DNA of 39,242 nucleotides from Patescibacteria group bacterium (GCA_038065015.1 JBBTRU010000036.1:1-39242), one strand, 5' to 3'; shown: positions 3,068 to 37,283, numbered from the stretch's first letter. Numbers and translations are program-made. The notes: a model not told the origin generated them from the sequence alone.

Positions 3068-3376
3068 TTAGAATGCAGTTTTGCACTTCGTGCAGACGCG
3101 CTGTTTCTTGCCATCCGTCGTCACGTGGACGCTGGCCCGGCGGGGTTTGCCGCACTTGCCGCACACGAGCATGACATTGGAAGCGTGGACCGGGGCGAAG
3201 AAAGAAATTTTCTGGCCTTTCTCGTTACCGCGCCGACTGCGAATGTGGCGGGTGCGCTCGTTGACACCTTCGATAACGACGAGATTGGTACGCGGGAAGA
3301 CCTGGAGAATTTTCCCCTTCTTGCCGCGGCTGCGGCCGTCCGTTACGTACACGTTGTCGCCAGTCTTCAGGATCAT
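3068..3376 (-). CDS. rplX: 50S ribosomal protein L24 with C-terminal four-Cys motif
   Basis: 102 aa. KOW region GDNVYVTDGRSRGKKGKI, and a C-terminus with CGKC-x21-CTKC. Confidence 0.93.
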   Translation of the reverse strand: MILKTGDNVYVTDGRSRGKKGKILQVFPRTNLVVIEGVNERTRHIRSRRGNEKGQKISFFAPVHASNVMLVCGKCGKPRRASVHVTTDGKKQRVCTKCKTAF

Positions 3377-3381
3377 ATCGG

Positions 3382-3753
3382 TTAGAGAACTTCGGGAGCG
3401 AGTGAAATGAGCTTGCTGTAGCCACGCGCTTTGAGCTCGCGGGCTACCGGGCCAAAAATACGGGTGCCTTTCGGGTCTTTAGATTTCAGGTCCACAATCA
3501 CGGCGGCATTGTCGTCGAAGCGAATGTAGGTGCCGTCGGCGCGGCGCGTTTCTTTGCGGGATCGAATGATAACGGCGTGGTGCATTTCGCTCTTCTTCAC
3601 CGACGCGTGCGGAATCGCGGCTTTCACCACAACCTTCACAATGTCGCCGATGCGAGCGTAGTGCTTCTTGTAGCCGCCCAGCACGGTAATGACCTCGAGG
3701 TCGCGAGCCCCGGTATTATCTGCTGCCACAAGTCTGGAACGAAGTTGCACCAT
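3382..3753 (-). CDS. rplN: 50S ribosomal protein L14
   Basis: 123 aa with AADNTGARDLEVI...IRFDDNAAV. Confidence 0.97.
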   Translation of the reverse strand: MVQLRSRLVAADNTGARDLEVITVLGGYKKHYARIGDIVKVVVKAAIPHASVKKSEMHHAVIIRSRKETRRADGTYIRFDDNAAVIVDLKSKDPKGTRIFGPVARELKARGYSKLISLAPEVL

Positions 3754-3756
3754 ATA

Positions 3757-4029
3757 TTACTTTGCGTCGGGAATAATGCGCCAGCGCTTGTGGCGGGAAA
3801 TTGGCCGGCATTCAACAAAGCGCACTTGCTGGCCCACGGTAAACGTACCCGTTGGCGCGTGCACCTGATACTTTTCGCTGGAACGGTACCGCTTGCCGTA
3901 ACGCGGGTGTACGAGCACGCGGTCCACGCGCACCACGACCGTCTTCGTCATCTTGTTCGAGACGATAGTGCCGGTGAATTCGCGGGGCTTTGTTTCAGCG
4001 GTGGTGGTTGGTTGCGTAGTCATAGTCAT
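3757..4029 (-). CDS. rpsQ: 30S ribosomal protein S17
   Basis: 90 aa with FTGTIVSNKMTKTVVVRVDR. Confidence 0.95.
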   Translation of the reverse strand: MTMTTQPTTTAETKPREFTGTIVSNKMTKTVVVRVDRVLVHPRYGKRYRSSEKYQVHAPTGTFTVGQQVRFVECRPISRHKRWRIIPDAK

Positions 4030-4259
4030 TAGGTCTTGGGCGTACGAGTAGCGGGTGGAAGGGCTTGCCCGCCGGAGCGTGGCGTATGCAGGAGGGTAAG
4101 AATGCGAGCAATGGCAGTGCGTACTTCGCGAATTTCCCGAACATCCTTGTGCGCATCCTGCGCCACGCGGAAGCGAAGGTCACGCAAACGCTCACGAGCC
4201 TCCGCCAAAATGGTGCGGAGTTCTGCTTCGGTCTTCTGTTGGAGTTCTTTGAGCGTCAT
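4029..4259 (-). CDS. rpmC: 50S ribosomal protein L29
   Basis: 76 aa starting MTLKELQQKTEAELRTIL. Its stop overlaps the rpsQ ATG (TAATG). Confidence 0.93.
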   Translation of the reverse strand: MTLKELQQKTEAELRTILAEARERLRDLRFRVAQDAHKDVREIREVRTAIARILTLLHTPRSGGQALPPATRTPKT

Positions 4260-4265
4260 AGGAGC

Positions 4266-4682
4266 TTACACGGTGTCCGCTTTGGTGACAAACCTGGTCT
4301 TGACGGAGAGTTTGTAGGCGGCTAATTGCATGGCTTGGCGGGCAACTACTTCGGTCACGCCGTCGAGTTCAAACATGACGGTGCCAGGCTTCACGACGGC
4401 AACGTAATGGTCCACGGCGCCTTTGCCACCACCCATGCGAATTTCAGAGCCTTTAACGGTAATAGGCTTATCCGGGAAAACACGAATCCAGACTTTGCCG
4501 CCGCGGGCAAGTAAGCGGGTAATTGCCCGACGAGCCGCTTCAATTTGCCGGCCGCTCACCCAGTCGCCTTCAATGGCTTTTAGGCCATACGCGCCGAAGC
4601 TCACGCGGGTTTTCTGCGTGGCATTCCCGCGGATGCTGCCGCGGTGATGCTTTCGGTGTTTGACCTTCTTCGGGGTAAGCAT
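4266..4682 (-). CDS. rplP: 50S ribosomal protein L16
   Basis: 138 aa starting [15 protein letters not shown]. Confidence 0.97.
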
Positions 4683-9348: not shown

Positions 9349-10533
<1,185 letters not shown>

Positions 10534-10632: not shown

Positions 10633-12723
10633 CTACCTCGCGGCAGGCTGGCCCGCCGCCTTGGCAATAATGCCTTCGGCCACATTGCGGGGCGTTTCGG
10701 CGTAATGGCTGAATTCCATGGAATACGAGGCCCGACCCTGGGTCATGGACCGGAGGGCGGTGGCATAGCCGAACATTTCGGCCAGTGGCACGTCTGCGTC
10801 AATGACGCGCATGTTGCCGCGGTCCCGCATTTCTTTAATCTGGGCGCGCTTGCTGTTAAGGTCGCCAATGACATCACCCATAAAAGATTCGGGGGTAACC
10901 GCTTCAACCTTCATAATGGGTTCCAGCAGAACAGGCTTGGCCTTTTTGAACGCGGCCTGCACGGCCATGGAACCGGCAATTTTGAAAGCCATTTCCGAAG
11001 AGTCCACATCGTGGTAGCTCCCATCGGTCACGGTCACTTTGGCATCGATAATCGGGAAGCCCGCCAAGATCCCGCGGTCCAGGGCTTCGGCAATGCCATT
11101 ATTAATAGGTTTAATGAATTCTTTCGGGATCGCCCCGCCTTTGACATCGTCGACGAATTCGTAGCCTTTCCCCTTTTCGTTGGGTTCGATAGTGACCGTA
11201 CAGTGCCCGTACTGACCGCGGCCGCCGGTCTGGCGGATGTACTTGCCTTCGCCTTCGGCACTGGCCGTAATGGTTTCTTTATAGGCAACCTGGGGTTTAC
11301 CCACATTTGCTTCCACTTTGAATTCGCGCTTCATGCGGTCCACAATAATATCCAGGTGCAATTCGCCCATACCCGAAATAATGGTTTGGTTGGTTTCTTC
11401 GTTGTACTTTACGCGGAACGTCGGGTCTTCTTCGGCCAAGCGCTGGATAGCGGTACCCATTTTTTCCTGGTCGGCCTTGGTCTTGGGTTCAATAGCCAGG
11501 TCTATAACCGGCGTGGGAAAGGTAATAGACTCCAGCACCACGTGGTGATCGGGGTCACAAATGGTGTGGCCGGTAAAAGTTTTCTTGAGGCCGACGATAG
11601 CGGCGATTTCCCCGGTAAAGACTTCTTGCACTTCTTCCCGGTGGTTGGCGTGGAGGCGGACAATGCGGCCCACGCGTTCTTTCTCGCCCGTTGAGGTGTT
11701 GTACACGTAGGAACCAGCCGTCAGTTTGCCGGTGTAGATGCGGAAAAAAGCCAGCTTGCCCACAAAAGGGTCAGCTGCAATTTTAAAGACTAAGCCCGCG
11801 AATGGTTTTGCATCATCCGGTGTGCACACAACTTCGGCACCGGTCTTTGGGTCCGTACCTTTCGCGGCCGAAACTTCCAGCGGATTGGGCAGGTAGTCCA
11901 CCACGGCATCGAGCAATAGCTGCACGCCTTTGTTCTTCAGTGCCGAACCGCAGAGCACAGGGACCAGTGCATTGGCGATAACCGCTTTGCGCAAGGTCAC
12001 TTTCAACTCTGCCAAGGCCGGTTCTTTGCCTTCCAAGTACTGGTTCAGTTGCTGCTCGTCATTCTCCACGATTGCTTCGATGAGTTTGTGACGATAGTCT
12101 TCGACCTTTTCTTTCATGTCGGCTGGCACGTCAATTTCTTGCACATCCTGGCCGAGATCGTCGTTGTAAATATAAGCTTTGCGGGTAAACAAATCGATAA
12201 CGCCTTTGAAAGTTTCGGCCGCGCCAATGGGCAGCTGCAGCGGATGCGCGCGCGTGGTCAGTCGTTCGTGAATGCTCTTGAGGTCAAAATAGAAATCCGC
12301 GCCCATGCGGTCCATCTTGTTAATAAAGCAAATGCGCGGCACGCCAAACTTTTCGGCCTGGTGCCAGACCGTCTCGGACTGCGACTCTACGCCCGCGACG
12401 CCGTCAAAAACGACCACACCGCCGTCAAGCACACGCAAGCTGCGCTGCACTTCGACCGTGAAATCTATGTGGCCAGGGGTATCAATGAGGTTAATTTGCT
12501 TGCCGTTCCAAAAACAGGTGGTGGCGGCGGCAGTGATAGTGATGCCGCGCTCTTTCTCCTGTTCCATCCAGTCCATTTCGGCGGCGCCTTCGTGCACTTC
12601 GCCAATTTTGTGCTTTTTGCCCGTGTAGAACAAAATGCGCTCGGACACGGTGGTCTTCCCCGCGTCAATGTGGGCAATAATACCGATATTCCGAGTGTTT
12701 TCTAGCGAGTATTCACGGGGCAT
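10633..12723 (-). CDS. fusA: Elongation factor G
   Basis: 696 aa with [14 protein letters not shown] and the EF-G domain order. Confidence 0.99.
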
Positions 12724-12726
12724 ACA

Positions 12727-12764
12727 TTACGAATTACGAAAAGGGATACAATAGTACGAAATAC
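12727..12764 (-). repeat. TTCGTAA-heptamer element upstream of fusA
   Basis: Minus strand GTATTTCGTACTATTGTATCCCTTTTCGTAATTCGTAA, then TGT, then ATG. No GGAGG-type SD. Confidence 0.8.
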
Positions 12765-12943
12765 ATGAACCAAAGGCGGCAGCGGTGCAGTGCGATACGA
12801 CGGTCTGGAGCGAGGAACGAACGAACCGTACTGACGTACGGTGAGTGAGTGCCGCAGCGAAGACCAAGCCCGAAGGGTCGCGCTCGCAGTGGTCGGGCTC
12901 TGCCCGCCAATGCGACGCGATAGCGCACGCACCCCTGCCGCCG

Positions 12944-13917: not shown

Positions 13918-13946
13918 AGCGTACCACGGGGAGGAGGGTACGTCAA
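13918..13946 (-). promoter_or_regulatory. Candidate promoter of the str operon
   Basis: Minus strand TTGACG (13941-13946), 17 nt, TACGCT (13918-13923). About 90 nt upstream of rpsL. Confidence 0.35.
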
Positions 13947-13957
13947 GGGAACCAGTG

Positions 13958-14075
13958 TTACGAAATACGAATGGTACCTACGAATATACGAATTACGAAT
14001 CTACTTGTTCAAGCCTATAATTCTGATTAGAGAATTCGTATTTCGTATATTCGTATCTTTTTTCGTAATTCGTAA
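13958..14075. repeat. Inverted pair of 43-nt TACGAA/TTCGTA repeat arms around a 32-nt spacer
   Basis: Left arm TTACGAAATACGAATGGTACCTACGAATATACGAATTACGAAT (13958-14000). Right arm AATTCGTATTTCGTATATTCGTATCTTTTTTCGTAATTCGTAA (14033-14075). The spacer contains TATAAT. Confidence 0.85.
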
Positions 14076-16840: not shown

Positions 16841-17032
16841 GTTACCACCAACTGCCTTCCGTTTACGCGGAAGGCGCTTCGTAATGTATATGCCTTCCCC
16901 TCTCTCGCCCTTCCTCCGGACCTATCGGTCCGTAGGACCGGAGGTCGGGCACCTGGGTGCTTCCGATGGGTCGCACCCGCCTGCGGCTCCCCAAGGTGAG
17001 AGAGTACTGTAAACGTACTCCATTCATATAAT

Positions 17033-17056
17033 CGTATCTCTTTTCGTAATTCGTAA
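17033..17056 (+). repeat. TTCGTAA-heptamer element upstream of metK
   Basis: CGTATCTCTTTTCGTAATTCGTAA, then ACGCT, then ATG. No SD. Confidence 0.8.
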
Positions 17057-20949: not shown

Positions 20950-23893
<2,944 letters not shown>

Positions 23894-24020
23894 CTATATA
23901 ATATCCCCTCCTCTCGGAGGAGGGGTGTCCCGCTCGAGCGGGAGACGGGGTGGTTTAGTCGGGGAGACCATCGATCGGTGAAATTACCAATGATAATCCT
24001 CATCTCCTGCCTCGCTAAAA

Positions 24021-24086
24021 GGGTAGCCTGGGTCCCTTGACCCAGGCGTTGCCTCGGCGAGGTCAAGGGACCTCGCCTACCCCGCC
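24021..24086. repeat. Inverted pair of module W (GGGTAGnC..GGTCCCTTGACC)
   Basis: Copy at 24021-24048 and an inverted copy at 24054-24086. A third copy is at 34675-34703. Lies between convergent genes. Confidence 0.75.
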
Positions 24087-24099
24087 TTAGCAATAAAAC

Positions 24100-25401
24100 T
24101 TACGGGCAATACCCCTCGTCCGACGTGCTAAAGGCCGGGCGGGTGAGGAGTTCAAACTTTTCTAGGGTAGCTGGCTTATTGACAAAGGTAACAGTCTGAC
24201 CAACATTACTGGAGAACGTGTATGGCAAGGGCATAATGCAGCTCGAAGCATTCAGGGTGGCAATATTTTGCAGGCCACCCGTGCCGGTCGTATTCACAGT
24301 TGCCCCAGTTGCTGTCCATCCGCCGCTACCATCGGCTGCTTTCAAACGCAGGTAGTACGTGCAAGGCGCAAGGTTACATTCGTATAGTGGATCTGTACTG
24401 GCAACACCCAGCAACGTGCATACGCCGCCCGGACAAGTTATTACATCCGCATCGTATGGCCCATACCGCTTGAGCTCGTTGGCAATTTGAATGGGAATGT
24501 CCTTCTTCAATTCTTTTTCGCTAAAGATAACAAAGTCGAACAAGCCCGAGAGCGGCAAGGACCAAGGGAAGAGCGCTGCCAAGGCCTGCTTCTGCCCGGC
24601 GGCGCTGCTAATGGACTTCACCTGGATCTGCGAGGTAACCGCAGGGTCGGTGAACACCCTAAAATTTGCGACATCACCGTTTGCAGGTGAAGGCAAACGA
24701 AGTGGAGTAACGCGTATGCGGAAGCCAGCAAAATCTCCCCCAAGTGGATAGGCGGGGTAGAACTGGGTAATGGGCACACTAAACCCATATCCATTGCTGC
24801 CACTGATACCGCAGCCGCTGGTACTGTGGAAACTACTGTAGCTTACTAAAATTTTCTGAGTTCGGGAGAGATTTAGCAGGGTGTCCCACGCTACCCAACT
24901 CACCTCCAGCACTTCGTCATCGCCGCCAGAACTCTCAGCGTACACACAGAGCGCTGGGGTTGTGCCGATCGACGAAATAGAAGTATCCACATTGTAAAGC
25001 TCCACAAAGACGCTCTGGTTCTCTTTCACCGTCTGGTACACCGAAGCTTCGCTGCCAACTTGAGCACTGGCGCTCAAAAGCCCGCCGGTTGATGGGTAGA
25101 AGTACGAACTATTTTCGTCATCTACGCTCCCACTGTTCTGACCAGGCAACGTCGCCGTTGTCAACTGTGCGAGCGCACTTGAGAGCGTACCCGACTTGAG
25201 AGCATTCAGCTTGTTCAAGCCCAGCTCCATGCCCGACTCGGTAGCGTAGTACCCTTGGTGGCCTTCTTTAACCACGGCGTTAATGCGCACCTGGAACACC
25301 AGCACCGTGCTTAAGGTAACGCCAATAGCTACCACCGACGACATAATCATTATCGCCAGCAGCAGGGTAATGCCTTTGGGTTGGCGACGTTTACGGGACA
25401 T
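24100..25401 (-). CDS. PilX-like large minor pilin (433 aa)
   Basis: MSRKRRQPKG|ITLLLAIMIM has a prepilin-like leader without Glu+5. Last gene of the minor-pilin block, with an 11-nt overlap with the upstream gene. Confidence 0.7.
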   Translation of the reverse strand: MSRKRRQPKGITLLLAIMIMSSVVAIGVTLSTVLVFQVRINAVVKEGHQGYYATESGMELGLNKLNALKSGTLSSALAQLTTATLPGQNSGSVDDENSSYFYPSTGGLLSASAQVGSEASVYQTVKENQSVFVELYNVDTSISSIGTTPALCVYAESSGGDDEVLEVSWVAWDTLLNLSRTQKILVSYSSFHSTSGCGISGSNGYGFSVPITQFYPAYPLGGDFAGFRIRVTPLRLPSPANGDVANFRVFTDPAVTSQIQVKSISSAAGQKQALAALFPWSLPLSGLFDFVIFSEKELKKDIPIQIANELKRYGPYDADVITCPGGVCTLLGVASTDPLYECNLAPCTYYLRLKAADGSGGWTATGATVNTTGTGGLQNIATLNASSCIMPLPYTFSSNVGQTVTFVNKPATLEKFELLTRPAFSTSDEGYCP

Positions 25402-26227
25402 AGGTATTCAAGCGGTCAAGATTTTTGAATATGCGGCTGGCAACCGTGGTCTGGAAAATCTGGCTCACGGTCTGCTGGCCGCTGGTGCGCGAGACTTCCA
25501 GGCTGTAGGTAACGCGTGGGTGCAGCGAAACTGTATCACCGAATTTCTGTGGGAAGCAGTAGCATTTCCCGCCACGCTCGTTTTGGCATGTATCGGCCAC
25601 ATCCGGATTTTCGCAAATCGTCCCCCACCGACAATTCAGCTCCGTGAAAGAAGGTGGACTCTCGGTCCCACATTCCATTGCAACCTGCGCGGCAAACGGA
25701 TCTTCCGACGGGGAAATAAAAAAAGTAAAGCTACTCACGGTTAAATTTGGGGGAGAAATATCGGTATTGTCCCAAGCAGTAGTCAGTGAAGCATCATTAC
25801 ATGCAACTGTCACCGGCGCAATGGGCACCATACGTTGAATTGTCTTTGTCGTACTGTTCAATCGGTATAAAATTTGCGTATTCAGCGCATCACGTACTAC
25901 GAGACATTCATTGCCGGTACCGGTTAAAGCAGCAAAAAGTTTTTTCGGCTCGCCAACAAGAAAGGTTGAGTAGTACGAATAGTCCACGCTCCCTTCCCGC
26001 AAGTCTTTGGCAATTTGCTCCACCACGGCCCGGGCGTCGTTTTGCAATTCTTGCTGGTTGAGCGCCCGGCGTTGCTGCTGCACAAAAATGAGAAAAACGT
26101 TAACCGCCATGAGCGCCGTAATCGAGAAAATTGCCATGGTAACAAGTACTTCTATCAGAGTAAACCCAGCACCACTTTTCCGGGCAGCCCAAGAATTCAC
26201 CGGCAAAGTGGTGCTGGGTGAACCCAT
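25391..26227 (-). CDS. PilW/GspJ-like minor pilin
   Basis: The ATG at 26227 lies 17 nt after the upstream stop. It gives MGSPSTTLPVNSWAARKSGAG|FTLIEVLVTMAIFS. The longer track ORF overlaps the upstream gene. Confidence 0.75.
   Translation of the reverse strand: MGSPSTTLPVNSWAARKSGAGFTLIEVLVTMAIFSITALMAVNVFLIFVQQQRRALNQQELQNDARAVVEQIAKDLREGSVDYSYYSTFLVGEPKKLFAALTGTGNECLVVRDALNTQILYRLNSTTKTIQRMVPIAPVTVACNDASLTTAWDNTDISPPNLTVSSFTFFISPSEDPFAAQVAMECGTESPPSFTELNCRWGTICENPDVADTCQNERGGKCYCFPQKFGDTVSLHPRVTYSLEVSRTSGQQTVSQIFQTTVASRIFKNLDRLNTYVP
26164..26219. repeat. 56-nt palindrome (20-bp arms, 16-nt loop) encoding a prepilin leader
   Basis: ACCCAGCACCACTTTTCCGG-gcagcccaagaattca-CCGGCAAAGTGGTGCTGGGT, with one arm mismatch. 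Confidence 0.9.
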
Positions 26228-26243
26228 ACTTTGCTTGTGACTT

Positions 26244-27392
26244 CTAAAGTGAAATCCAATCATAGAGGAATTCCTGGTAGCGGACTCTTGTCGCACTATC
26301 GGCTTTTGGCCAGCGTACTTCGCTGGTGACCAGTGCGCCAACATTAGTCGTTTCAGTGTCCCAGTCATCGGCAGCGTGATTTCCTTGGTTATTGTTGGCC
26401 GCAACGTAATCGGTACAGTTCGAAGCGCTTCCGCTATCCACAACGAGTTCATGGGTAGTAATTGTGGGTGGATTTGTACCATTATCAGTTATTGTCCCAC
26501 GGCAAATCGGCTGCAAACTTACCACTCGGTAGTATTTACTCTGCACAACGCCCGAGTCCACCGGTGAATTTTGCAACTGCAGGTACGTACCTTGGTATGT
26601 ATACACCTTGGCCCGATTGTCATCCCACACTTCCTCTGGATGACCTGATGCTGTGTATTGCCCGTCTTGGAGCAAAGTACTGGCAAGCAGGGGGTTGTAA
26701 AAGGTTAATTGCCCATCGGGAGAATTGCCGGGCGGCACGCTTGTAGCAACCGATGGGTAGGCAAAGCCGAACTGGAAAGATTGCTCGAGGATCAAATCTT
26801 TGAGTGTCGTTACGTCAGCGACGTTCGTAGTGTCATCGTCACGATAGTCGCAATCCGCAGGCGCATTTGCGAGACGGGGGGGGCCACCCACACCCTCGCA
26901 ACCCGTAGGCATTGGCCAACTTTTAAATAAGTAATTCCCTAAGACTTGCACATCGCAATCACGCGAACTCGTGAGAGCAATATCATCATCATTATTGGTG
27001 GTGCACACATTCGAAACACCCACTGTGCATGCTGGGTCACTAGGATGAATAACCTTACATACCGCGCCTTCCATATTGCCCAGATCATAGGTGGTTAGGT
27101 ATATTGTTGGATCACTAGTTTTCAAGGCATTTTCAAAAAGGTACGAACTCCAACTCACCAGCGGGTCTTCAACTTTGCGCAGCGATCCCGAGTTGCGCAG
27201 GCTGTAGGCAATTTCCAAACCTTCCCGCGCCAAACTTTGGCCCACAATCCGGTCCTGGTTGGCGCGGCCCAGGTTGATGCTGGTGTTGACCAGCACCAGC
27301 GAGCCCACCACGCCCACCAGAATAACCCCGATGGCAATAACGCCTTCGAGCAAGACGATCCCGGCTGGGTGTTTAGAACGTACAGTCGCCAT
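26244..27392 (-). CDS. PilV-like large minor pilin (382 aa)
   Basis: MATVRSKHPAG|IVLLEGVIAIGV has Glu+5. Cys-rich body. Confidence 0.72.
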   Translation of the reverse strand: MATVRSKHPAGIVLLEGVIAIGVILVGVVGSLVLVNTSINLGRANQDRIVGQSLAREGLEIAYSLRNSGSLRKVEDPLVSWSSYLFENALKTSDPTIYLTTYDLGNMEGAVCKVIHPSDPACTVGVSNVCTTNNDDDIALTSSRDCDVQVLGNYLFKSWPMPTGCEGVGGPPRLANAPADCDYRDDDTTNVADVTTLKDLILEQSFQFGFAYPSVATSVPPGNSPDGQLTFYNPLLASTLLQDGQYTASGHPEEVWDDNRAKVYTYQGTYLQLQNSPVDSGVVQSKYYRVVSLQPICRGTITDNGTNPPTITTHELVVDSGSASNCTDYVAANNNQGNHAADDWDTETTNVGALVTSEVRWPKADSATRVRYQEFLYDWISL

Positions 27393-28326
27393 CGGGTATG
27401 TGGGTTATCACGCCTTCTTTGGTAACGCGGACAATGCGGCAATCACTCGTCGGTCGAGTCTTTAGTGCCACCATGAGCTGCACTTCTTTCCATAGTTTTC
27501 CACCCGTAAGGTTCCAGGGCGCCCCAGCGGTAGGGGTTTTTATGCTCACGTTGTCCGAGAGCACGATTGTGCGGCCGTCGGGCGAGGAAAAGTCTACAAT
27601 GGCCTGCAATGGGTAGGTGTCAGAGATAGTACCCGCGGCGGGTTGGGGGGCGGGTTCGGTTTTGTTACGCCAGGGAGAGCCATCGTCACAGGTAACTGCT
27701 ACCGCCGATTCCGCTTCGATAAGCTGGATATCTAGCAAGGTAACGCGCGGGTCAAAGCTATATGCTGTTCGTATGGTATCACCTTTGTAGTAATTCGTGC
27801 TGCCAATCTTGTCGCTACTAAACAAATAATCTTTACCGGTGTCCATATTCTTGAACGCGTTTGTGAGCACGTCCCAGTTGGGGTCGCCCGACGAAAATGG
27901 GAAGCAGCTGCCCAGGCACATCACCCGGTCACCGAACATGAAGTATTGGGTGAGGTCTGGCCAATGATTGTCGCCAAAACTAATCCCGTCCTGGCAGCTG
28001 AAAAACATGCCGTAGCCGCCGCTGGCCGTGGTGTGCGTGCATGCATTAGCACCTGTGCCAGTATTTGTGCAGTCAGTATCCGTAGTGCACTCCATATCCA
28101 GATTTTGCACGCCACAGAAACCCGAGACCTGGCCGCCAATGGTGTGCTCTTGGGCAAAGCGCAGGCGGGAGACGAGCAACGCCGTCTCGCGGGAGAGTAG
28201 GCTATCGTCACTCCCCCGCCGATAGTTGGCGACAACCAGGCCGAAGAGAAGAGAAAAAATGCCCAAGGTTACAATAATCTCCACCAACGTGAATCCGGCT
28301 TTACGGCTAGAAGGTACAATCCGCAT
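27373..28326 (-). CDS. GspH/FimU-like minor pilin (317 aa)
   Basis: MRIVPSSRKAG|FTLVEIIVTLGIFS...ANYRRGSDDS...RLRFAQE. Ends DGDCTF. Confidence 0.78.
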   Translation of the reverse strand: MRIVPSSRKAGFTLVEIIVTLGIFSLLFGLVVANYRRGSDDSLLSRETALLVSRLRFAQEHTIGGQVSGFCGVQNLDMECTTDTDCTNTGTGANACTHTTASGGYGMFFSCQDGISFGDNHWPDLTQYFMFGDRVMCLGSCFPFSSGDPNWDVLTNAFKNMDTGKDYLFSSDKIGSTNYYKGDTIRTAYSFDPRVTLLDIQLIEAESAVAVTCDDGSPWRNKTEPAPQPAAGTISDTYPLQAIVDFSSPDGRTIVLSDNVSIKTPTAGAPWNLTGGKLWKEVQLMVALKTRPTSDCRIVRVTKEGVITHIPDGDCTF

Positions 28327-29749
28327 CGCCGCTTTGGGAAATCGCCCCCGTTTGATCTACGGTAATTACCCGGCAATCTTTAGTACGTTTGACAATGCCC
28401 AGTATTACTTCAGCCTTAGCCCATGGATTATTCGGGTCTATTTGCCAAGTTGCCGTAGGTGGACTGCTGGTAACATTATCGTTGATCTGCACCTTACGAC
28501 CGTCAGGGGGCAAGAATCGAACTACGGCCTGGATGGGATAATTTTGATTATCACCGACTGGTGCTAACCCAGAGTCAATTGACCCATTAGGTAATGAGGG
28601 TGAATTTGTATTTGGTACGCCTCCAGGATTTGTTACACTATTATTTATTCGCCATCTTGAAGTATTCGTACATTGAGAACTCGTCACGCCATCAAGTGCC
28701 GTAATACGAATATCACGTACTTCTACATCGTTACTCAAAGTATACATTTCCTTTAAAGTGTCGCCACGATACCCGGGGAAAGACTGCCCATGCCATAAGT
28801 AATGAATTACACCATCACTAATATACTGCCCTTGCCAGGGTTTATATGGGTTTATTGGAATAGTTCCTGATTGGAAACAACCCTGTTTATTAGAGCCATC
28901 ATCATTTACAGATTGTTTGCAAGCAAGTACATCTGCAAAAATACTGTAACTTCTTTTACCGTAGTAATTAATTGGGTAACTATTATTCGAAACGACTGTT
29001 GGACTCCCTATAGTATGTGGATATTGAAATGGAATGTACCCCTTATTTGGTCCCTCTGTGTTATCTACAGCCGCAACAATGGTGCAAGAGAAAACTACCG
29101 CGTATCCACCGGGTGGGCTTTTTTCATCTGTGCACACATCATACTCAGTCGCAGTACCTGTGATACCTAGACAATTTGTTGGTGCTTTACACCTACAGTC
29201 AGCATCAGTCACGCACTGTTGCCCAGAAAAGAACGAACAGTATTTTACGGTCCTCCCGCTCGACGTAAGCTCTTGGGCGTAGCGCATATTTGCCATGACC
29301 AAATTTACCTCCCGATTGAGCACGCTGTCTTTGTTGCCTCGGGTGTAATTGGCCAAGAAAAAAGCGAGCATCGCAAAGGTAATGCCCATAGCGACAGTTA
29401 TTTCTACAAGTGTGAACCCAGCACCACTTTGCCGGTGGGCTCTTGGGATGCCCGGCAAAGTGGTGCTGGGTAAATCCCCGCTCGCATCATGTTTTTTTAC
29501 TGCACTAAAACCAAGTCTTTTTCTTAACTCACGTATCGCGTTGCCATTATGCTTAAGGTTGTGTTCACGCATACGAGCTATTTGTTCTTCTTTAAATGCT
29601 TCATAGTAAACCAATTGCCAAGGTTTATACCGTTTCGTAGCCGGACTCTTACCGTCATTATGTTCTTCTATTCTGCGTTGTAGGTCACGGGTAGAACCGA
29701 CATAATACTCACTGCGTTTTAGACTCTTGAGGAGATAGACGTAAAACAT
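28307..29749 (-). CDS. GIY-YIG nuclease domain fused in frame to a GspH/FimU-like minor pilin
   Basis: The ATG at 29749 gives MFYVYLLKS..YYVGSTRDLQRRIEEHN..WQLVYYE. There is no stop before ...RQSGAG|FTLVEITVAMG...ANYTRGNKDS. Ends DADCTF. Confidence 0.7.
   Translation of the reverse strand: MFYVYLLKSLKRSEYYVGSTRDLQRRIEEHNDGKSPATKRYKPWQLVYYEAFKEEQIARMREHNLKHNGNAIRELRKRLGFSAVKKHDASGDLPSTTLPGIPRAHRQSGAGFTLVEITVAMGITFAMLAFFLANYTRGNKDSVLNREVNLVMANMRYAQELTSSGRTVKYCSFFSGQQCVTDADCRCKAPTNCLGITGTATEYDVCTDEKSPPGGYAVVFSCTIVAAVDNTEGPNKGYIPFQYPHTIGSPTVVSNNSYPINYYGKRSYSIFADVLACKQSVNDDGSNKQGCFQSGTIPINPYKPWQGQYISDGVIHYLWHGQSFPGYRGDTLKEMYTLSNDVEVRDIRITALDGVTSSQCTNTSRWRINNSVTNPGGVPNTNSPSLPNGSIDSGLAPVGDNQNYPIQAVVRFLPPDGRKVQINDNVTSSPPTATWQIDPNNPWAKAEVILGIVKRTKDCRVITVDQTGAISQSGDADCTF
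29416..29471. repeat. 56-nt perfect palindrome encoding a prepilin leader, loop inverted relative to 26164-26219
   Basis: ACCCAGCACCACTTTGCCGG-tgggctcttgggatgc-CCGGCAAAGTGGTGCTGGGT. Confidence 0.9.
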
Positions 29750-29766
29750 GCAAAGTGGTGCTGGGT
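29455..29766 (-). mobile_element. Candidate GIY-YIG gene cassette bracketed by a 17-nt direct repeat
   Basis: GCAAAGTGGTGCTGGGT occurs at 29455-29471 and 29750-29766. The interior is AT-rich (29581-29640 counted at 20/60 GC versus 39/60 for 36181-36240). Confidence 0.5.
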
Positions 29767-30560
29767 CATAAGCCAATCATATTCTGGTACCAGTTTACCA
29801 CGCTGGGGCCAAAAATGTAGGCCGCAATGCCCGCCGCACCCAGGAACACTCCAAAAGGGAGCTGGCTTTTGAGCCTTACCCTGCCCCGGGCCAGCAAATA
29901 GGCCGCCCACACGCTGCCGCTTAGGTACGAGGCGAAGAGCGCCAAAATAACCCCGGGCAACCCCAGGTATGCGCCGAGGATAGCCCCAATGCGGATATCG
30001 CCGCTGCCCACCCACTTCCCCCGCGAAAAATACCATTGCAGCCAGAACCAGCCAGCACCGATGGTTATGGCGAGGATGAGGGATACAAGCTGGGAGCTTA
30101 ACGCGGAGGACTGGCCACTGAAAATCCGGGCAAGCTGAAGGACGAACAGAATTGCCAGGGTGGGCAGGCTTATGCTGTCAGGTACAATTTTATGCCGCCC
30201 GTCAATGAATGCGAGTACCAGCAGGCTGCACGCGCCAATTGCGCCGATGAAAAATTCTAACGAGAGGCCAAACCGCGAAAAAAGTAATATGAAAATAATC
30301 GCCGTGAGCATTTCGACAATAATGTACTGGGGGCTTATGGGCTTGTGGCAAAACCGGCAGCGGCCGCGGAGAAACAGGTAGCTAACAATCGGCACCAAGT
30401 CTGGGCCCTTGAGCACTTTTTTGCAGTGCATGCACCGCGAGCGCTGGTTGAGGTTCAAAAACTTTCGGCGCTTGGGCAAGCGAAAAATGACGACGTTCAA
30501 AAAACTGCCGATGATAGCGCCAAGCAGGAAGAGGAAGATGGGGATGACAAGTGAGGGCAT
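29766..30560 (-). CDS. pilD: Prepilin peptidase / N-methyltransferase (A24 family)
   Basis: The ATG at 30560 gives MPSLVIPIFLF. CMHC...CRFC Zn motif, FIDGRHKIVPD and GSGDIRIGA catalytic Asp motifs. Confidence 0.88.
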   Translation of the reverse strand: MPSLVIPIFLFLLGAIIGSFLNVVIFRLPKRRKFLNLNQRSRCMHCKKVLKGPDLVPIVSYLFLRGRCRFCHKPISPQYIIVEMLTAIIFILLFSRFGLSLEFFIGAIGACSLLVLAFIDGRHKIVPDSISLPTLAILFVLQLARIFSGQSSALSSQLVSLILAITIGAGWFWLQWYFSRGKWVGSGDIRIGAILGAYLGLPGVILALFASYLSGSVWAAYLLARGRVRLKSQLPFGVFLGAAGIAAYIFGPSVVNWYQNMIGL

Positions 30561-30561
30561 A

Positions 30562-30951
30562 CTATATATCCCTCTCCCTGGGTGGGAGAGGGTGGCCAAA
30601 GGCCGGGAGAGGGGGAAGCTGCTGCTGTATTTTTTCTAGAACTGCGGTAATGTCAGAGGCAATCTCATTATTCCAAACGCGAATAGTTTTCCACCCTTCG
30701 CTCTGTAACCACATATCACGTTCAGCATCGTGCACTCTTTGGTCTGGCTCATCATGTCCACTTCCATCAACTTCAACTATAAGTTTGTATTTCGGTGCAC
30801 AGAAATCAACAATATAATTACCAATGGGGTACTGTCGATAAAATTTGACCCCTCCAAAACGCCCTGCCCGTAAGTACTGCCAGAGTTTCGCTTCAGTATC
30901 CGTTTGTTTCTTTCGTAGAGTACGTGCAAATTTTGTTAGTGCATGGCGCAT
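30562..30951 (-). CDS. DUF559 (Vsr-like endonuclease fold) protein
   Basis: 129 aa with LRKKQTDTEAKLWQYLR...FYRQYPIGNYIVDF...LIVEVDGSGH...RVWNNEI. The C-terminus is encoded by repeat module Y. Confidence 0.85.
   Translation of the reverse strand: MRHALTKFARTLRKKQTDTEAKLWQYLRAGRFGGVKFYRQYPIGNYIVDFCAPKYKLIVEVDGSGHDEPDQRVHDAERDMWLQSEGWKTIRVWNNEIASDITAVLEKIQQQLPPLPAFGHPLPPRERDI
30569..30615. repeat. GC-rich hairpin module Y
   Basis: TCCCTCTCCC..GTGGGAGAGGGTGGCCaAAGGCCGGGAGAGGGG. Near-identical copy at 34882-34928. Confidence 0.85.
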
Positions 30952-31024: not shown

Positions 31025-31450
31025 CTACCTCACCCCCGCCGGGGTAAGCACGTGCTTGCCGGCCGCAAAACCACTGGCGCCGCGCTCCAGGGTAAAGCTT
31101 ATTTCGTAGGTGGTGGCGTCTGGCACTTTAGCAACTAAATAGTCCGCGCCTCGTGGGTCTTGCAAGGTTGCAATGTTCGCAAAGTCTTGCTTGAGGTTGC
31201 ACGTCCGCACCGGCACGTTCACCGTGGCACAACCATTCTCGGCCGCGCTGGCGTAGCTCGACGTACGGTTAAACAACAGTAGGAAGCCCACCTGTAGCCG
31301 CGCCATATCGGCTACGCGCTGGGCATCGCGCGCCTTGGCCCGCTCGGCGCCAACGGCCCGCACACCCATAAAAAGCACCACCAAAAAGGCGAGGCTGACG
31401 AGGACGATGCTGATCATGGATGCTCCCTTTGGAATGCCCGACTGTAACAT
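31025..31450 (-). CDS. Divergent pilin-like protein (141 aa) with a degenerate class III signal
   Basis: MLQSGIPKG|ASMISIVLVSLAFLVV...AKARDAQRVADMARLQ has a pilin-type helix but no Phe+1 or Glu+5. Confidence 0.6.
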   Translation of the reverse strand: MLQSGIPKGASMISIVLVSLAFLVVLFMGVRAVGAERAKARDAQRVADMARLQVGFLLLFNRTSSYASAAENGCATVNVPVRTCNLKQDFANIATLQDPRGADYLVAKVPDATTYEISFTLERGASGFAAGKHVLTPAGVR

Positions 31451-34674: not shown

Positions 34675-34928
34675 GGGGTAGGCGTGGTCCCTTGACCGCG
34701 CCGATTTCCAACCAAGTCTCTAGCAAGACCCCTCCTTAGTCCTTCCGGTCGCTCCCGATGGGTCGCGCCGCCTTCGGCCCCTTCGTAAGGGGAGGATAAC
34801 TTTCAAACGGCCTACATTATCCCCTCCTCTCCCCCGCTTCGCGGACCCTCTCCTACCAGAGGAGAGGGATATTTTACAGTCTCCCTCTCCCCTCCGTGGG
34901 AGAGGGTGGCCGAAGGCCGGGAGAGGGG
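34675..34928. repeat. Cluster of GC-rich hairpin modules W, Z (with insert), X and Y
   Basis: W 34675-34703, Z 34727-34831, X 34823-34868, Y 34882-34928. Each matches copies elsewhere in the window. Confidence 0.85.
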
Positions 34929-37223: not shown

Positions 37224-37283
37224 TTACGAAATACGAATTGGGACCTACGAAACTACGAATTACGAAAAGAGATACGAATTTCG
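37224..37283 (-). repeat. TTCGTAA-heptamer element upstream of the pilT-like gene
   Basis: Minus strand CGTATCTCTTTTCGTAATTCGTAGTTTCGTAGGTCCCAATTCGTATTTCGTAA, then CCCGC, then ATG. Confidence 0.85.

Follow-up and report, generated by a model that had tools for sequence, protein, structure and literature searches.

Why should two minor-pilin genes of one Patescibacteria group bacterium carry the same palindrome, in opposite orientations, at the codons of the prepilin cleavage site? We addressed this question in a 39,242-nt stretch of DNA (the window), for which an earlier sequence-only reading had reported 56-nt perfect palindromes in both genes. Both lie where they had been placed (Table 1), and the one at site 2 is perfect (20 + 16 + 20 nt), but that at site 1 is not, as one arm has a mismatch, T at 26179 (plus strand ACCCAGCACCACTTTTCCGG).

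Two hairpins and a nuclease gene in one pilin cluster

At up to 3 mismatches the arm 20-mer matches five times, against 0.01 expected (0 of 100 shuffles); copies of the palindrome in the 39-kb window come to 2.5, all within the pilin cluster. As first described, the loops are flipped, with 12 of 16 positions agreeing when loop 1 is compared with loop 2 reverse-complemented (direct orientation, 5 of 16). The minus-strand frame at both sites indeed reads PSTTLP-x6-(R/K)(Q/K)SGAG|FTL(I/V)E, Gly-1 comes from the 3′ arm in both (SGAG directly before Phe), and the two mature pilins are unrelated outside the N-terminal helix. The proposed hairpins fold far more stably than shuffled controls, at −39.6 (site 1) and −50 kcal/mol (site 2) as RNA (z −4.8 and −7.4) and at −22 and −27.5 kcal/mol as DNA (z −5.9 and −8.9).

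Table 1. Features of the pilin cluster (window positions; "." marks a feature without strand)
Feature	Position	Strand	Description
Pilin 1 gene	25391..26227	-	278 aa; 21-aa leader MGSPSTTLPVNSWAARKSGAG, mature from 26164; Pfam N_methyl E 8e-8
Pilin 1 right target copy	26160-26167		GGGTTTAC
Palindrome 1	26164-26219	.	solo hairpin, arms 19/20, 16-nt loop; encodes PSTTLPVNSWAARKSGAG
Pilin 1 left target copy	26218-26225		GGGTTCAC
Pilin 1 original-leader remnant with left target copy	26218..26243	-	G-F-T frame KSQAKYG-F-T(AC), without start codon
Fusion ORF P0001	28307..29749	-	480 codons: GIY-YIG domain, linker, palindrome-encoded leader end, mature pilin 2
Mature pilin 2	28307..29416	-	369 aa plus stop; orthologue of P0002 and P0004
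Pilin 2 right target copy	29412..29419	-	GGGTTCAC; Gly-1, Phe+1, Thr+2 of pilin 2
Palindrome 2	29416-29471	.	solo hairpin, 20-nt arms, 16-nt loop; pilin frame encodes PSTTLPGIPRAHRQSGAG
Pilin 2 left target copy	29470..29479	-	GGGGATTTAC; degenerate G-F-T codons, 5′ of palindrome 2, overlaps its first two bases
GIY-YIG nuclease domain	29504..29749	-	82 codons, ATG 29749-29747; Pfam PF01541 E 3.6e-15
Outer 5′ arm	29750..29766	-	palindrome half copy ACCCAGCACCACTTTGC, 17 nt; GIY-YIG ORF ATG directly after
Prepilin peptidase gene	29766..30599	-	PilD-like, A24 family; Pfam PF06750 E 2.7e-31, PF01478 E 2.2e-12

The present ORF of pilin 1, called independently at 278 aa in L017, is opened by a new ATG (26227-26225) in the PSTT frame. 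Pilin 2 is organized differently. Palindrome 2, whose final base also opens the Phe+1 codon, is nested at the 3′ junction of a nuclease element that begins with a further arm sharing its first base with the TGA stop of the peptidase gene. This third arm copy and the in-frame nuclease::pilin fusion were both absent from the sequence-only reading. The fusion ORF is identical to P0001 (100% identity, 480 aa), and the independent gene call in L017 likewise gives 480 aa. The hexamer GCGAGC (29480-29485), just 5′ of the left target copy, could be what decay has left of the nuclease element's 3′ arm; clearer 3′-arm and target remnants precede the inner hairpins of L023, L026 and L027.

The nuclease domain looks functional from its conserved residues and predicted fold. 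Y3, Y5, Y16, G18, R25, R26, H30, N31, E50 and N70, which include catalytic-type positions, are invariant in 9 homologues, and the AF2 model of residues 1–78 adopts a beta-beta-alpha-beta-alpha-alpha fold. A PDB sequence search returned 1zg2 (UPF0213; E 1.4e-6) and Slx1, with UPF0213 BH0048 as the closest solved relative, and Foldseek matched the model to 1zg2, Slx1, I-TevI and UvrC. In the model of the whole fusion, the folded domain is followed by a disordered linker and then the pilin helix.

Prepilin leaders are short and basic, typically about 5–30 aa. Both genes encode prepilin features (Gly-1, Phe+1, Glu+5 and a hydrophobic N-terminal helix; SGAG|FTLIEV and SGAG|FTLVEI), beside the A24 peptidase gene. 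The pilin 1 leader falls within the usual range at 21 aa, but the predicted leader of pilin 2 is not short; it spans 110 aa and includes the folded nuclease domain, far above any leader length known to us. An internal start (TTG in the 5′ arm of site 2; GTG or TTG in L020) may give further products beside the fusion.

A family of inverted-repeat elements targeting the Gly-1/Phe+1 codons

The same inverted repeats occur in about 12 related Patescibacteria loci, either flanking GIY-YIG genes or as solo hairpins. The suggested tie to the adjacent GIY-YIG nuclease was borne out: most loci fetched for fusion proteins have their GIY-YIG gene flanked by the arms. A full element runs 5′ arm ACCCAGCACCACTT.., 1–13 nt, ATG, a GIY-YIG ORF of roughly 85–95 codons without stop codon, and 3′ arm ..AAGTGGTGCTGGGT. 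The inverted repeats measure 14–20 nt and the elements fall into two size classes, 300–350 nt with the nuclease gene and 36–107 nt without, the short forms consisting of the two arms only. L020 has a single inverted pair, with 5′ arm, C, ATG, GIY-YIG, 3′ arm and TTTAC in 300 nt; the arm-C-ATG order of the window recurs there and in L021 and L023, and in degenerate form in L026, L028 and L032. L021 and L023 resemble site 2 in having an outer arm and an inner hairpin, and inner hairpins are also found in L026, L027, L030 and L032. In L032, hairpins are nested or in tandem inside one gene, and two pilin genes have identical hairpins. The cluster of L028 contains a pair of elements, of which one is a frameshifted pseudogene. 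The ribosome-binding site, ATG and leader lie between the arms in L004 and L006, at a constant 105–107 nt; one such element of L004 comes with an N-gap and a duplicated leader module.

The target of these elements is GGN TTY AC, the codons for Gly-1, Phe+1 and Thr+2 of type IV pilin genes, and the repeats are nearly always found between two copies of it, often with the short host leader preserved on the 5′ side. GGN TTY precedes the 5′ arm in 18 of 28 cases, TYAC follows the 3′ arm in 18 of 25, and (G)GGTTYAC stands as a direct repeat at both element ends. The flanks read as a direct repeat, GGGTTT-ACCC, rather than as an extension of the palindrome, which would be GGGTAA-ACCC. The apparent 6–8-bp duplication overlaps self-complementary GGGT..ACCC, so that element boundaries and the origin of the duplication (made by insertion or carried by the element) are ambiguous. 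Intact host leaders are stranded 5′ of the arm in L020 (MTGSRSKTSG|FT), L023 (MDRSRG|FT), L006 (MKHKG|FT and MCRG|FT), L030 (MQLKSITKG|FT) and L032 (MMNKKG|F). Simple insertion of a 56-nt hairpin (58 nt net) would cause a frameshift, so the reading frames must have been reopened by additional changes.

This site preference speaks against a generic REP-like repeat that landed by chance, which the sequence-only reading had named together with assembly artefact as what might undo its interpretation; two copies are intergenic and outside pilin genes, one with an acidic repeat protein gene on one side and rpsO on the other (L003) and one upstream of a membrane-protein gene and pheS (L011). Chimeric reads can create palindromes, and the gap and duplicated module in L004 would fit an artefact, yet site 1 was recovered in ENA ERZ1292641 and in Logan ERR3858114 and ERR3858113, and site 2 in one, with identical palindrome sequence and loop orientation. 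With exact palindromes in independent assemblies, the same structure and codons in more than 10 other genomes and an arm match count far beyond chance, we give artefact or chance landing next to no credence.

Pilin 2 aligns with P0002 at 53% identity from exactly Phe+1 onwards, and its orthologues have plain leaders (P0002, MHKIRDG|; P0004, MKNHRAG|); no arm was found across 13 kb of the relative L022, whose orthologous pilins have plain leaders. Pilin 1 shares 59% identity with its orthologue P0010, likewise from Phe+1, and the same site holds a solo hairpin in the former and a complete GIY-YIG nuclease element in the latter. GIY-YIG domains 57–75% identical are attached to unrelated pilin bodies, and L004_a and L006_b have similar interiors in non-orthologous pilins. 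The original proposal of a mobile or invertible element thus held in its first half, on the strength of orthologue presence and absence, duplicated target and identical copies in different pilins, but not in its second. Under programmed inversion (phase variation), the inverted repeats would be recombination sites and the flipped loops two switch states. The reverse-complementary loops are what a switch would leave, and inversion systems classically act on pilin genes. However, the 16-nt spacer (0–9 nt in relatives) is below the needs of known invertases, the loci have no recombinase gene as a consistent neighbour, each site keeps one orientation in four assemblies from different samples, and the duplicated target and nuclease ORF would be left unexplained. 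We regard the switch as very improbable; two insertions in opposite orientations account better for the flipped loops.

Conservation acts at the nucleotide and structural level, as had been suggested. In the arm pairing alignment 94% of cells are paired and 6 pairs have changed on both sides (reached by 0 of 500 shuffles), L021 has a variant, ACCCCGC, common to all three arms, and non-coding copies exist as well. Reading frames vary, with L006_a encoding AKVGLGK and the 5′ arm read in three frames (PSTT, PAPL, TQHH) across fusions. Such conservation might reflect a host cis-regulatory RNA, the hairpin, or long-range base pairing between an arm in the 5′ UTR and the last leader codons, controlling translation, processing (e.g. 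by RNase III) or stability of the pilin mRNA, and the nuclease gene having merely landed in the hairpin loop. The very stable structure, always overlapping the start and leader region of the sense transcript, the covarying arms and the enclosed ribosome-binding site, ATG and leader of L004 and L006 would suit that role. A palindrome, however, can form the same fold on either strand, and in DNA as well, so the covariation does not point to RNA. Moreover, orthologous genes in L022 lack the hairpin, both orientations and the intergenic copies occur, duplicated target codons flank the hairpin with original leaders remaining upstream, hairpins are nested or in tandem within a single L032 gene, and the hairpin has neither an Rfam match nor terminator features. 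A primarily regulatory origin is, in our judgement, distinctly unlikely.

Proposed mechanism and the case for host use

The likely explanation, in our view, is a family of site-specific mobile elements in Patescibacteria, composed of nuclease and hairpin and tolerated through a rebuilt peptidase site, with the palindromes as its inverted-repeat ends and as miniature derivatives. Its anatomy, insertion site, duplicated target, presence and absence among orthologues, covariation, decaying copies and recurrent fusion can be read from the sequences compared; nuclease activity, movement and proteolytic removal we infer. Pilin 2 would have received the nuclease element, with a solo hairpin nested at its regenerated target, and pilin 1 an oppositely oriented solo hairpin. 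Right before Phe+1 the 3′ arm supplies the codons for (K/Q/R)SGAG, and each insertion thereby rebuilds the prepilin peptidase site. The pilin body would remain translatable as a tail behind an element-encoded leader, hence the host's tolerance. The nuclease may recognise the hairpin (in single-stranded DNA, cf. Ssn nucleases) or the empty G|FT site and drive copying into further pilin genes. The adjacent prepilin peptidase would cut after Gly-1 and free a normal pilin, the detached leader being 21 aa long for pilin 1 and 110 aa, with the whole nuclease, for pilin 2; to judge from the encoded site, the host's own peptidase can probably trim off the foreign part. As a side effect, the very stable hairpin near the start region could also lower or modulate pilin translation.

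More tentatively, with the balance tipping slightly against it, we propose a selfish nuclease gene that lives in a cleavable type IV pilin leader, inserted at Gly-1/Phe+1, translated as the N-terminus of the precursor and removed by prepilin peptidase. If true, the arrangement would parallel intein or intron removal while depending on a protease, and no earlier transposon-like element (with inverted repeats, target duplication and miniatures) would have had a minimal GIY-YIG nuclease as its sole enzyme; the element would be widespread in Patescibacteria and concealed by the annotation 'GIY-YIG nuclease family protein'. Against the mobile-element reading, the nuclease lacks the separate DNA-binding domain of characterised GIY-YIG homing enzymes, and we know of no GIY-YIG enzyme acting as a transposase. 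The low copy number in the window and the lack there of the published Ssn-related motif consensus also count against it.

To gauge breadth, the 156 closest GIY-YIG cluster representatives (50%-identity clusters) were surveyed, 97 of them with at least 150 aa. G-F-T-L-x-E directly follows the nuclease domain in 81 of these 97, the leader end is (K/Q/R)SGAG in 43 of the 81 nuclease::prepilin fusions, and named fusion representatives belong to Patescibacteria or Uhrbacteria. Our literature search found no published description of such fusions. So wide a conservation of the in-frame fusion could equally reflect host use. The GIY-YIG domain would then be a host-beneficial, cleavable pilin pro-domain, and the hairpins, instead of being selfish, would serve it as regulatory or recognition sites; in a possible variant, the nuclease is produced at the cytoplasmic face of the pilus and DNA-uptake machinery, is released by the peptidase and acts on incoming single-stranded DNA. 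Besides the retention of the fusion in 81 or more separate clusters and its conserved catalytic-type residues, this domestication would fit a nuclease gene always located in pilin clusters and adjoining the peptidase gene, a Neisseria Ssn relative that modulates natural transformation (PMC11893778) and DNA uptake in Patescibacteria, thought to use pili and ComEC (PMC12455944). Set against these are patchiness among orthologous pilins, many unrelated pilin types carrying the fusion, pseudogenised copies, nuclease-free solo hairpins at the same site with original leaders stranded upstream, and copies in intergenic non-pilin DNA. All these are marks of a selfish element and compatible with domestication in some lineages; as a general explanation we regard domestication as unlikely.

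Comparison with known systems

A close parallel to the proposed mobile element is provided by the Ssn GIY-YIG nucleases and their NTS/SRM hairpin repeats (Chenal et al. 2025, Nat Commun; PMC11893778). These nucleases bind hairpin repeats flanking their own genes, an arrangement that the authors liken to insertion sequences; NTS are reported to be rarely intragenic (2%), and the study covered reference genomes and discarded proteins above 150 aa (PMC11893778). Common to both are a small GIY-YIG domain (~90 aa) without separate DNA-binding domain, a gene bracketed in insertion-sequence-like fashion by 20–50-nt hairpin-forming inverted repeats, extra repeat copies without the gene, and a thematic connection with pili and the uptake of DNA. 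The flanking repeats of the window, L021 and L023 comprise a half copy before the ATG and a full hairpin on the 3′ side. Ssn nucleases are characterised by sequence-specific cutting of single-stranded DNA beside the hairpin and by inactivity on double-stranded DNA and RNA. Here, however, the repeat sequence is unrelated (the SRM consensus HGTCWY..YYVSBRH..WNVSBRG..RNCYNB has 0 matches on either strand of the 39-kb window), copy number is low, the repeats lie within coding sequence at one codon triplet, and the nuclease ORF is stop-less and pilin-fused (480 aa). Ssn proteins are single-domain GIY-YIG nucleases of about 94 aa in the cd10448 clade, to which the present domain may also belong.

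REP/BIME repeats with REP-associated tyrosine transposases, and IS200/IS605, resemble the present elements in hairpin repeats that flank one paired nuclease gene, in insertion beside a short specific sequence and, if our proposal holds, in recognition of the hairpin on single-stranded DNA. They differ in using an HUH/Y1 enzyme rather than GIY-YIG, and their repeats are extragenic whereas ours lie in frame within a leader peptide. Both systems are also discussed by Chenal et al. (PMC11893778).

Terminal-inverted-repeat elements are matched in inverted repeats, a direct target repeat, and coding and non-coding size classes, but the only ORF inside the repeats is the GIY-YIG nuclease, and no transposase from any of the established classes (DDE, HUH, serine, tyrosine) was found there. 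Miniature elements such as the Rickettsia palindromic elements, which insert in frame in protein-coding genes and are translated, and the Neisseria Correia elements are likewise short, with terminal inverted repeats and a duplicated target, and their non-autonomous copies exceed the coding copy in number. The target here, by contrast, is one functional motif, the prepilin cleavage site, instead of many genes; the element rebuilds that motif, and its enzyme is a GIY-YIG nuclease rather than a DDE or HUH transposase.

Homing GIY-YIG enzymes are modular, with a C-terminal DNA-binding domain, and reside in introns or inteins or free-standing between genes. Homing endonuclease genes (I-TevI, Seg proteins) share with the present element a GIY-YIG gene in highly conserved host-gene sequence, presence and absence among orthologues with some copies decaying, and, as we propose here, avoidance of host harm by removal of the insert from the final product. 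They have neither terminal inverted repeats nor solo hairpin derivatives, both of which are present here, and in the predicted structure only a disordered linker and the pilin helix follow the nuclease in place of a DNA-binding domain. No intron or intein features were seen at the locus, and Rfam gave no hits. Removal of this insert would instead take place at the protein level, by the host's signal peptidase.

Palindromes and gene layout in the window

Both palindromes occupy the positions assigned to them by the sequence-only reading, which had described each as a perfect 56-nt palindrome; this holds for palindrome 2, built of 20-nt arms around a 16-nt loop, but not for palindrome 1, in which one arm position is mismatched (T at 26179). 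Within the 39 kb to which coverage of the source genome was confined, arm matches at up to three mismatches number five against 0.01 expected, the fifth being a previously overlooked 17-nt half copy. The loops are flipped as claimed, loop 1 matching the reverse complement of loop 2 at 12/16 positions versus 5/16 in direct orientation, and both sites fold far more stably than shuffled sequence as RNA and likewise as DNA.

Features of the window, with genes of the pilin cluster in minus-strand order
Feature	Position	Strand	Order or context
Prepilin peptidase gene	29766-30599	minus	first
480-codon ORF, GIY-YIG nuclease into pilin 2	28307-29749	minus	after peptidase
Pilin gene	27373-28326	minus	after 480-codon ORF
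382-aa protein gene		minus	between 27373-28326 pilin and pilin 1
Pilin 1 gene	25391-26227	minus	after 382-aa protein gene
PilX-like protein gene		minus	last, after pilin 1
Palindrome 1	26164-26219		in pilin 1
Palindrome 2	29416-29471		in pilin 2
Half arm, 17 nt	29750-29766	minus	
DUF559 (Vsr-like) nuclease gene	30562-30951	minus	between pilin-like gene and peptidase gene
Repeats flanking DUF559 gene	30566-30615, 30959-31004		
Gene-free copies of these repeats	34823-34868 (100% identical), 34890-34928 (92%)		side by side, order swapped
Further positions listed with these repeats	23869-23925, 24054-24083, 34675-34704		
141-aa ORF	31025-31450	minus	
TACGAA-rich repeats	12727-12764, 13939-14075, 17023-17056, 37239-37279		intergenic

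The window originates from Hainich groundwater. Among three other assemblies, site 1 is reproduced in three and site 2 in one, all in the same orientation, so the element is real and not a product of assembly from collapsed or chimeric reads, a concern raised earlier. Comparison of the four assemblies disclosed no heterogeneity in loop orientation or sequence, the sole difference being a scaffolding N-run in the assembly L017. An invertible switch, also proposed earlier, is therefore unsupported, with one orientation in all four, and inversion of the 3.2-kb segment between the palindromes would leave pilin 2 with neither a start nor a leader. For the flipped loops, the simplest account is that a symmetric element inserted twice, once in each orientation. 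In Rfam at the gathering threshold the window matched tRNA-Pro alone; thus, the palindromes belong to no known RNA family. Nor are they intrinsic terminators, since the promoter/terminator scan was empty at both and a T-run is absent. The copies are also far too few to serve as DNA-uptake sequences.

The N-terminal part of the 480-codon ORF is a GIY-YIG nuclease domain (Pfam E 3.6e-15), whose ATG lies directly 3' of the half arm. The domain has no stop codon: the frame crosses palindrome 2 and continues through SGAG/FTLVEI (slash, prepilin peptidase cut) into mature pilin 2. The AlphaFold model of the 480-aa product (P0001) comprises a GIY-YIG fold (residues 1-78) and a disordered stretch (82-112), where the palindrome-encoded residues lie, followed by the pilin helix. 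The nearest solved structures to the nuclease domain are UPF0213 BH0048, Slx1 and the I-TevI catalytic domain; in NCBIfam the nuclease has no curated family and only a sub-threshold match to group I intron endonucleases. In pilin 1 the ATG at 26227 stands five bases ahead of palindrome 1, giving a 21-aa leader that ends KSGAG/FTLIEV. As noted earlier, the pilin bodies are dissimilar, mature pilins 1 and 2 being unrelated past the N-terminal helix.

Other repeats and genes were noticed nearby. The DUF559 gene is flanked by GC-rich hairpin-forming repeats, both of which recur in gene-free form, and together they constitute a second nuclease plus hairpin-repeat pair in the window; in the related locus L022, DUF559 genes are found at the corresponding position and also at 12514-12849. 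The 141-aa ORF (MLQSGIPKGASMISIVLVSLAF...) is an orthologue of pilin-like proteins in L004 and L006 that have SGAG/FTLTE. Its class III signal looks degenerate in the window and in its L022 counterpart, because the G/FTLxE motif is missing from both. TACGAA-rich direct and inverted repeats (TTACGAATTACGAAAAG...) are intergenic, recur near the palindromes of L003 (about 1990-2010) and L011 (about 3405-3415), and possibly represent a lineage-specific repeat that is regulatory or associated with promoters.

Plan of the element and its insertion site in relatives

Exact-match 20-mer scans of genome and metagenome collections yielded few hits. Those outside Patescibacteria (loci L001, L002, L005, L007, L008-L010 and L012-L016) were isolated half-sites within unrelated coding sequence, taken as chance matches; a scan of viral contigs for short hairpins gave none. 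In the patescibacterial loci L004 and L006, the same 16-nt core is present as an inverted pair in several of the clustered pilin genes; the pair spans 105-107 nt overall and encloses the pilin start codon and leader. The 16-nt loops of the window and the ~70-nt interiors of these pairs were compared for homology and share only a weak CTTGGG resemblance. In L003 (Kerfeldbacteria) and L011 the palindrome is intergenic and has no pilin connection; its loop there measures zero to a few bases. A third type of context, still inside the pilin cluster, was seen ~140 nt upstream of the major pilin gene: an inverted arm pair of 105 nt, off the cleavage codons, in L004 (6678-6782, plus strand), and the same arms in L006 (7944-7959, plus strand), whose partner lies beyond the locus end.

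When the long ORF, translated to 489 aa, served as protein query, every hit was a GIY-YIG::pilin fusion except the window's own protein and the plain-leader pilins P0002 and P0004. At the DNA level the fusion loci follow one recurring plan, of which L020 is the simplest case. Its 5' junction, after the upstream gene, reads ATG ACT GGC TCA CGC TCT AAG ACT TCT GGG TTT AC, then CCAGCACCACTTTAC, then the GIY-YIG ATG; its far end reads CGCACGCAAAGTGGTGCT GGG TTT AC, then A CTT ATC GAA. The insert is 300 nt long with inverted repeats at both sides and (T)GGGTTTAC at each end, and the junction sequence thus leaves the host start codon, leader (MTGSRSKTSG) and Phe-Thr codons intact upstream. Stranded leaders recur elsewhere (MDRSRG/FT in L023; MKHKG/FT and MCRG/FT in L006; MQLKSITKG/FT in L030; MMNKKG/F in L032). 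Across all loci, GGN TTY precedes 18 of 28 5' arms and TYAC follows 18 of 25 3' arms. The 5'-arm flank, GGGTTT-ACCC, repeats the 3' junction in direct orientation; had the palindrome simply been extended, GGGTAA-ACCC would stand there.

A short complete hairpin lies just 3' of the nuclease ORF in L021, L023, L026, L027, L030, L032 and the window. These inner hairpins are preceded by a 3' arm plus GGGTTT, decayed to varying degree, which is how a solo hairpin would look after inserting into the target regenerated by a nuclease element. Every pilin gene of the cluster has at least one hairpin at this site in L030 and L032, and two pilin genes of L032 carry identical copies. In L028 a single cluster holds two nuclease elements, and a frameshift affects one of the two. 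Beside the intact fusion (3352-4338), the GIY-YIG copy at 1640-1952, upstream of another pilin, is broken over three reading frames and reads as a decaying element. One 106-nt element of L004 (1124-1390, plus strand) shows an N-gap and a duplicated leader module, indicating that assemblers struggle with these repeats; public genomes may therefore lack some copies or show them collapsed.

Arm constraint, movement and proposed mechanism

Among the 16 elements compared, 94% of arm positions pair and six pairs are changed on both sides; none of 500 shuffles reached the observed values, and slid registers collapse. ACCCCGC is common to all three L021 arms, and GCCCCAC occurs in both arms of element L006_a, whose 3' arm is read in a different frame (AKVGLGK, four codons ahead of Gly-1). 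The 5' arm is translated in three frames in fusion proteins (PSTT, PAPL, TQHH). Pairing changes and multiple frames bear out the earlier proposal of conservation at the nucleotide or structure level. The constraint acts on nucleotides, in a form that arm pairing does not discriminate because a palindrome folds on either strand, as DNA or RNA.

Window pilin 2 is 53% identical to P0002, and Phe+1 is the very first residue of the alignment. The P0002 leader is MHKIRDG, and arms are absent throughout the 13-kb P0002 locus, L022. Window pilin 1, with a solo hairpin, is 59% identical from Phe+1 to P0010, which has the full nuclease element. GIY-YIG domains 57-75% identical are joined to unrelated pilin bodies. 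These differences show gain, loss and movement between paralogues and, together with the duplicated target, favour the mobile palindromic element among the roles first suggested. The pilin 1 orthologue of L022 has a plain leader (10222-10290) containing GCTTTACCCCAGGGGTTTACG, two TTTAC copies flanking a mini-palindrome built from the outermost arm bases; speculatively, a hairpin element may once have been here and left this footprint on excision or deletion.

Sequence comparison establishes the anatomy of the element, its insertion site and duplicated target, its mobility pattern and the arm constraint. As for mechanism, the nuclease would recognise the hairpin or the empty site and promote copying, in line with the earlier suggestion of a nuclease recognition site. 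Copying might resemble transposition, or it might rely on break repair in which the short GGGTTTAC stretch and the conserved codons of the pilin N-terminus provide homology; the evidence fits either. Prepilin peptidase works at the cytoplasmic face and requires Gly-1. The element would be tolerated because its 3' arm encodes SGAG ahead of Phe+1, so that the peptidase can trim everything before it. The region upstream of the nuclease ORF has no obvious ribosome-binding site; nuclease translation probably depends on an upstream ORF, namely the peptidase gene here and the stranded leader mini-ORF in L020, L023 and L006. The stable stem beside the pilin 1 start probably reduces pilin 1 translation. 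Since a simple 58-nt net insertion shifts the frame, the ORFs must have been restored by secondary changes, of which the ATG at 26227, within the left target copy, is an example; fusion ORFs may also have internal starts. Domestication of the nuclease::pilin fusion by the host is a possible alternative, and the fusion is widely conserved.

Breadth of the fusions and comparison with known systems

With the 82-aa nuclease domain as query, exhaustive HMMER searching retrieved 8262 proteins at E up to 0.001. We examined 156 sequences, comprising 150 listed of the 8262 and other fusions found earlier. Of these, 97 are at least 150 aa long, and in 81 of the 97 G-[F]-T-[L]-x-E follows right after the nuclease domain; several of the remaining long proteins have an N_methyl match. 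Of the 81 fusions, 43 have a leader terminating in (K/Q/R)SGAG and 25 carry the inner-hairpin signature. More distant matches are free-standing proteins of 80-100 aa. Named fusion members are Patescibacteria or Uhrbacteria, and public records label the fusions P0013-P0119 just 'GIY-YIG nuclease family protein' or 'putative endonuclease'. Very large bodies were seen in P0082 (895 aa, VWA domain), P0033 (DUF1554) and P0012 (569 aa, LVIVD repeat).

At least ~80 protein clusters called 'GIY-YIG nuclease family protein' are pilin precursors in fact. Their reannotation matters for pilin counts in Patescibacteria, a group whose host attachment and DNA uptake are thought to depend centrally on pili. 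If the proposed reading is true, selfish DNA has a new hiding place, a protein part that is discarded anyway, with the signal peptidase undoing the damage; the fusions would also be a natural experiment on the length and folding of leader that prepilin peptidase accepts.

Partial parallels exist in Rickettsia palindromic elements, which are translated in-frame insertions, and in Correia-type miniature elements, REP repeats with their transposases and homing endonuclease genes. No description of the fusions turned up in full-text searching that paired GIY-YIG with pilin, prepilin or Patescibacteria and homing endonuclease with pilin. The closest plan is that of Ssn, ~94-aa single-domain GIY-YIG nucleases that bind NTS/SRM hairpin repeats and cut adjacent single-stranded DNA (Chenal et al. 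2025, PMC11893778). The repeats flank the Ssn genes, a layout described by the authors as identical to that of insertion sequences and other mobile elements, and in Neisseria the nucleases modulate natural transformation (PMC11893778). That study (PMC11893778) used reference genomes and left out proteins >150 aa from the Ssn-family tree and only those >750 aa from the superfamily tree, so nuclease::pilin fusions would largely have been missed. The nuclease-hairpin pair described here would extend Ssn-type nucleases, single-stranded DNA cutters of biotechnological interest, to uncultured bacteria, and would offer a test case for DNA mobilisation by minimal GIY-YIG enzymes. The overall plan of nuclease plus hairpin repeats is alike, whereas the repeat sequence differs (the published SRM consensus has no match in the window), the repeats lie inside coding sequence at one codon triplet, and the nuclease is fused to a pilin. 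The element is of a known kind, nuclease plus hairpin repeat, with a targeting and an apparent host tolerance that are unusual and apparently undescribed.
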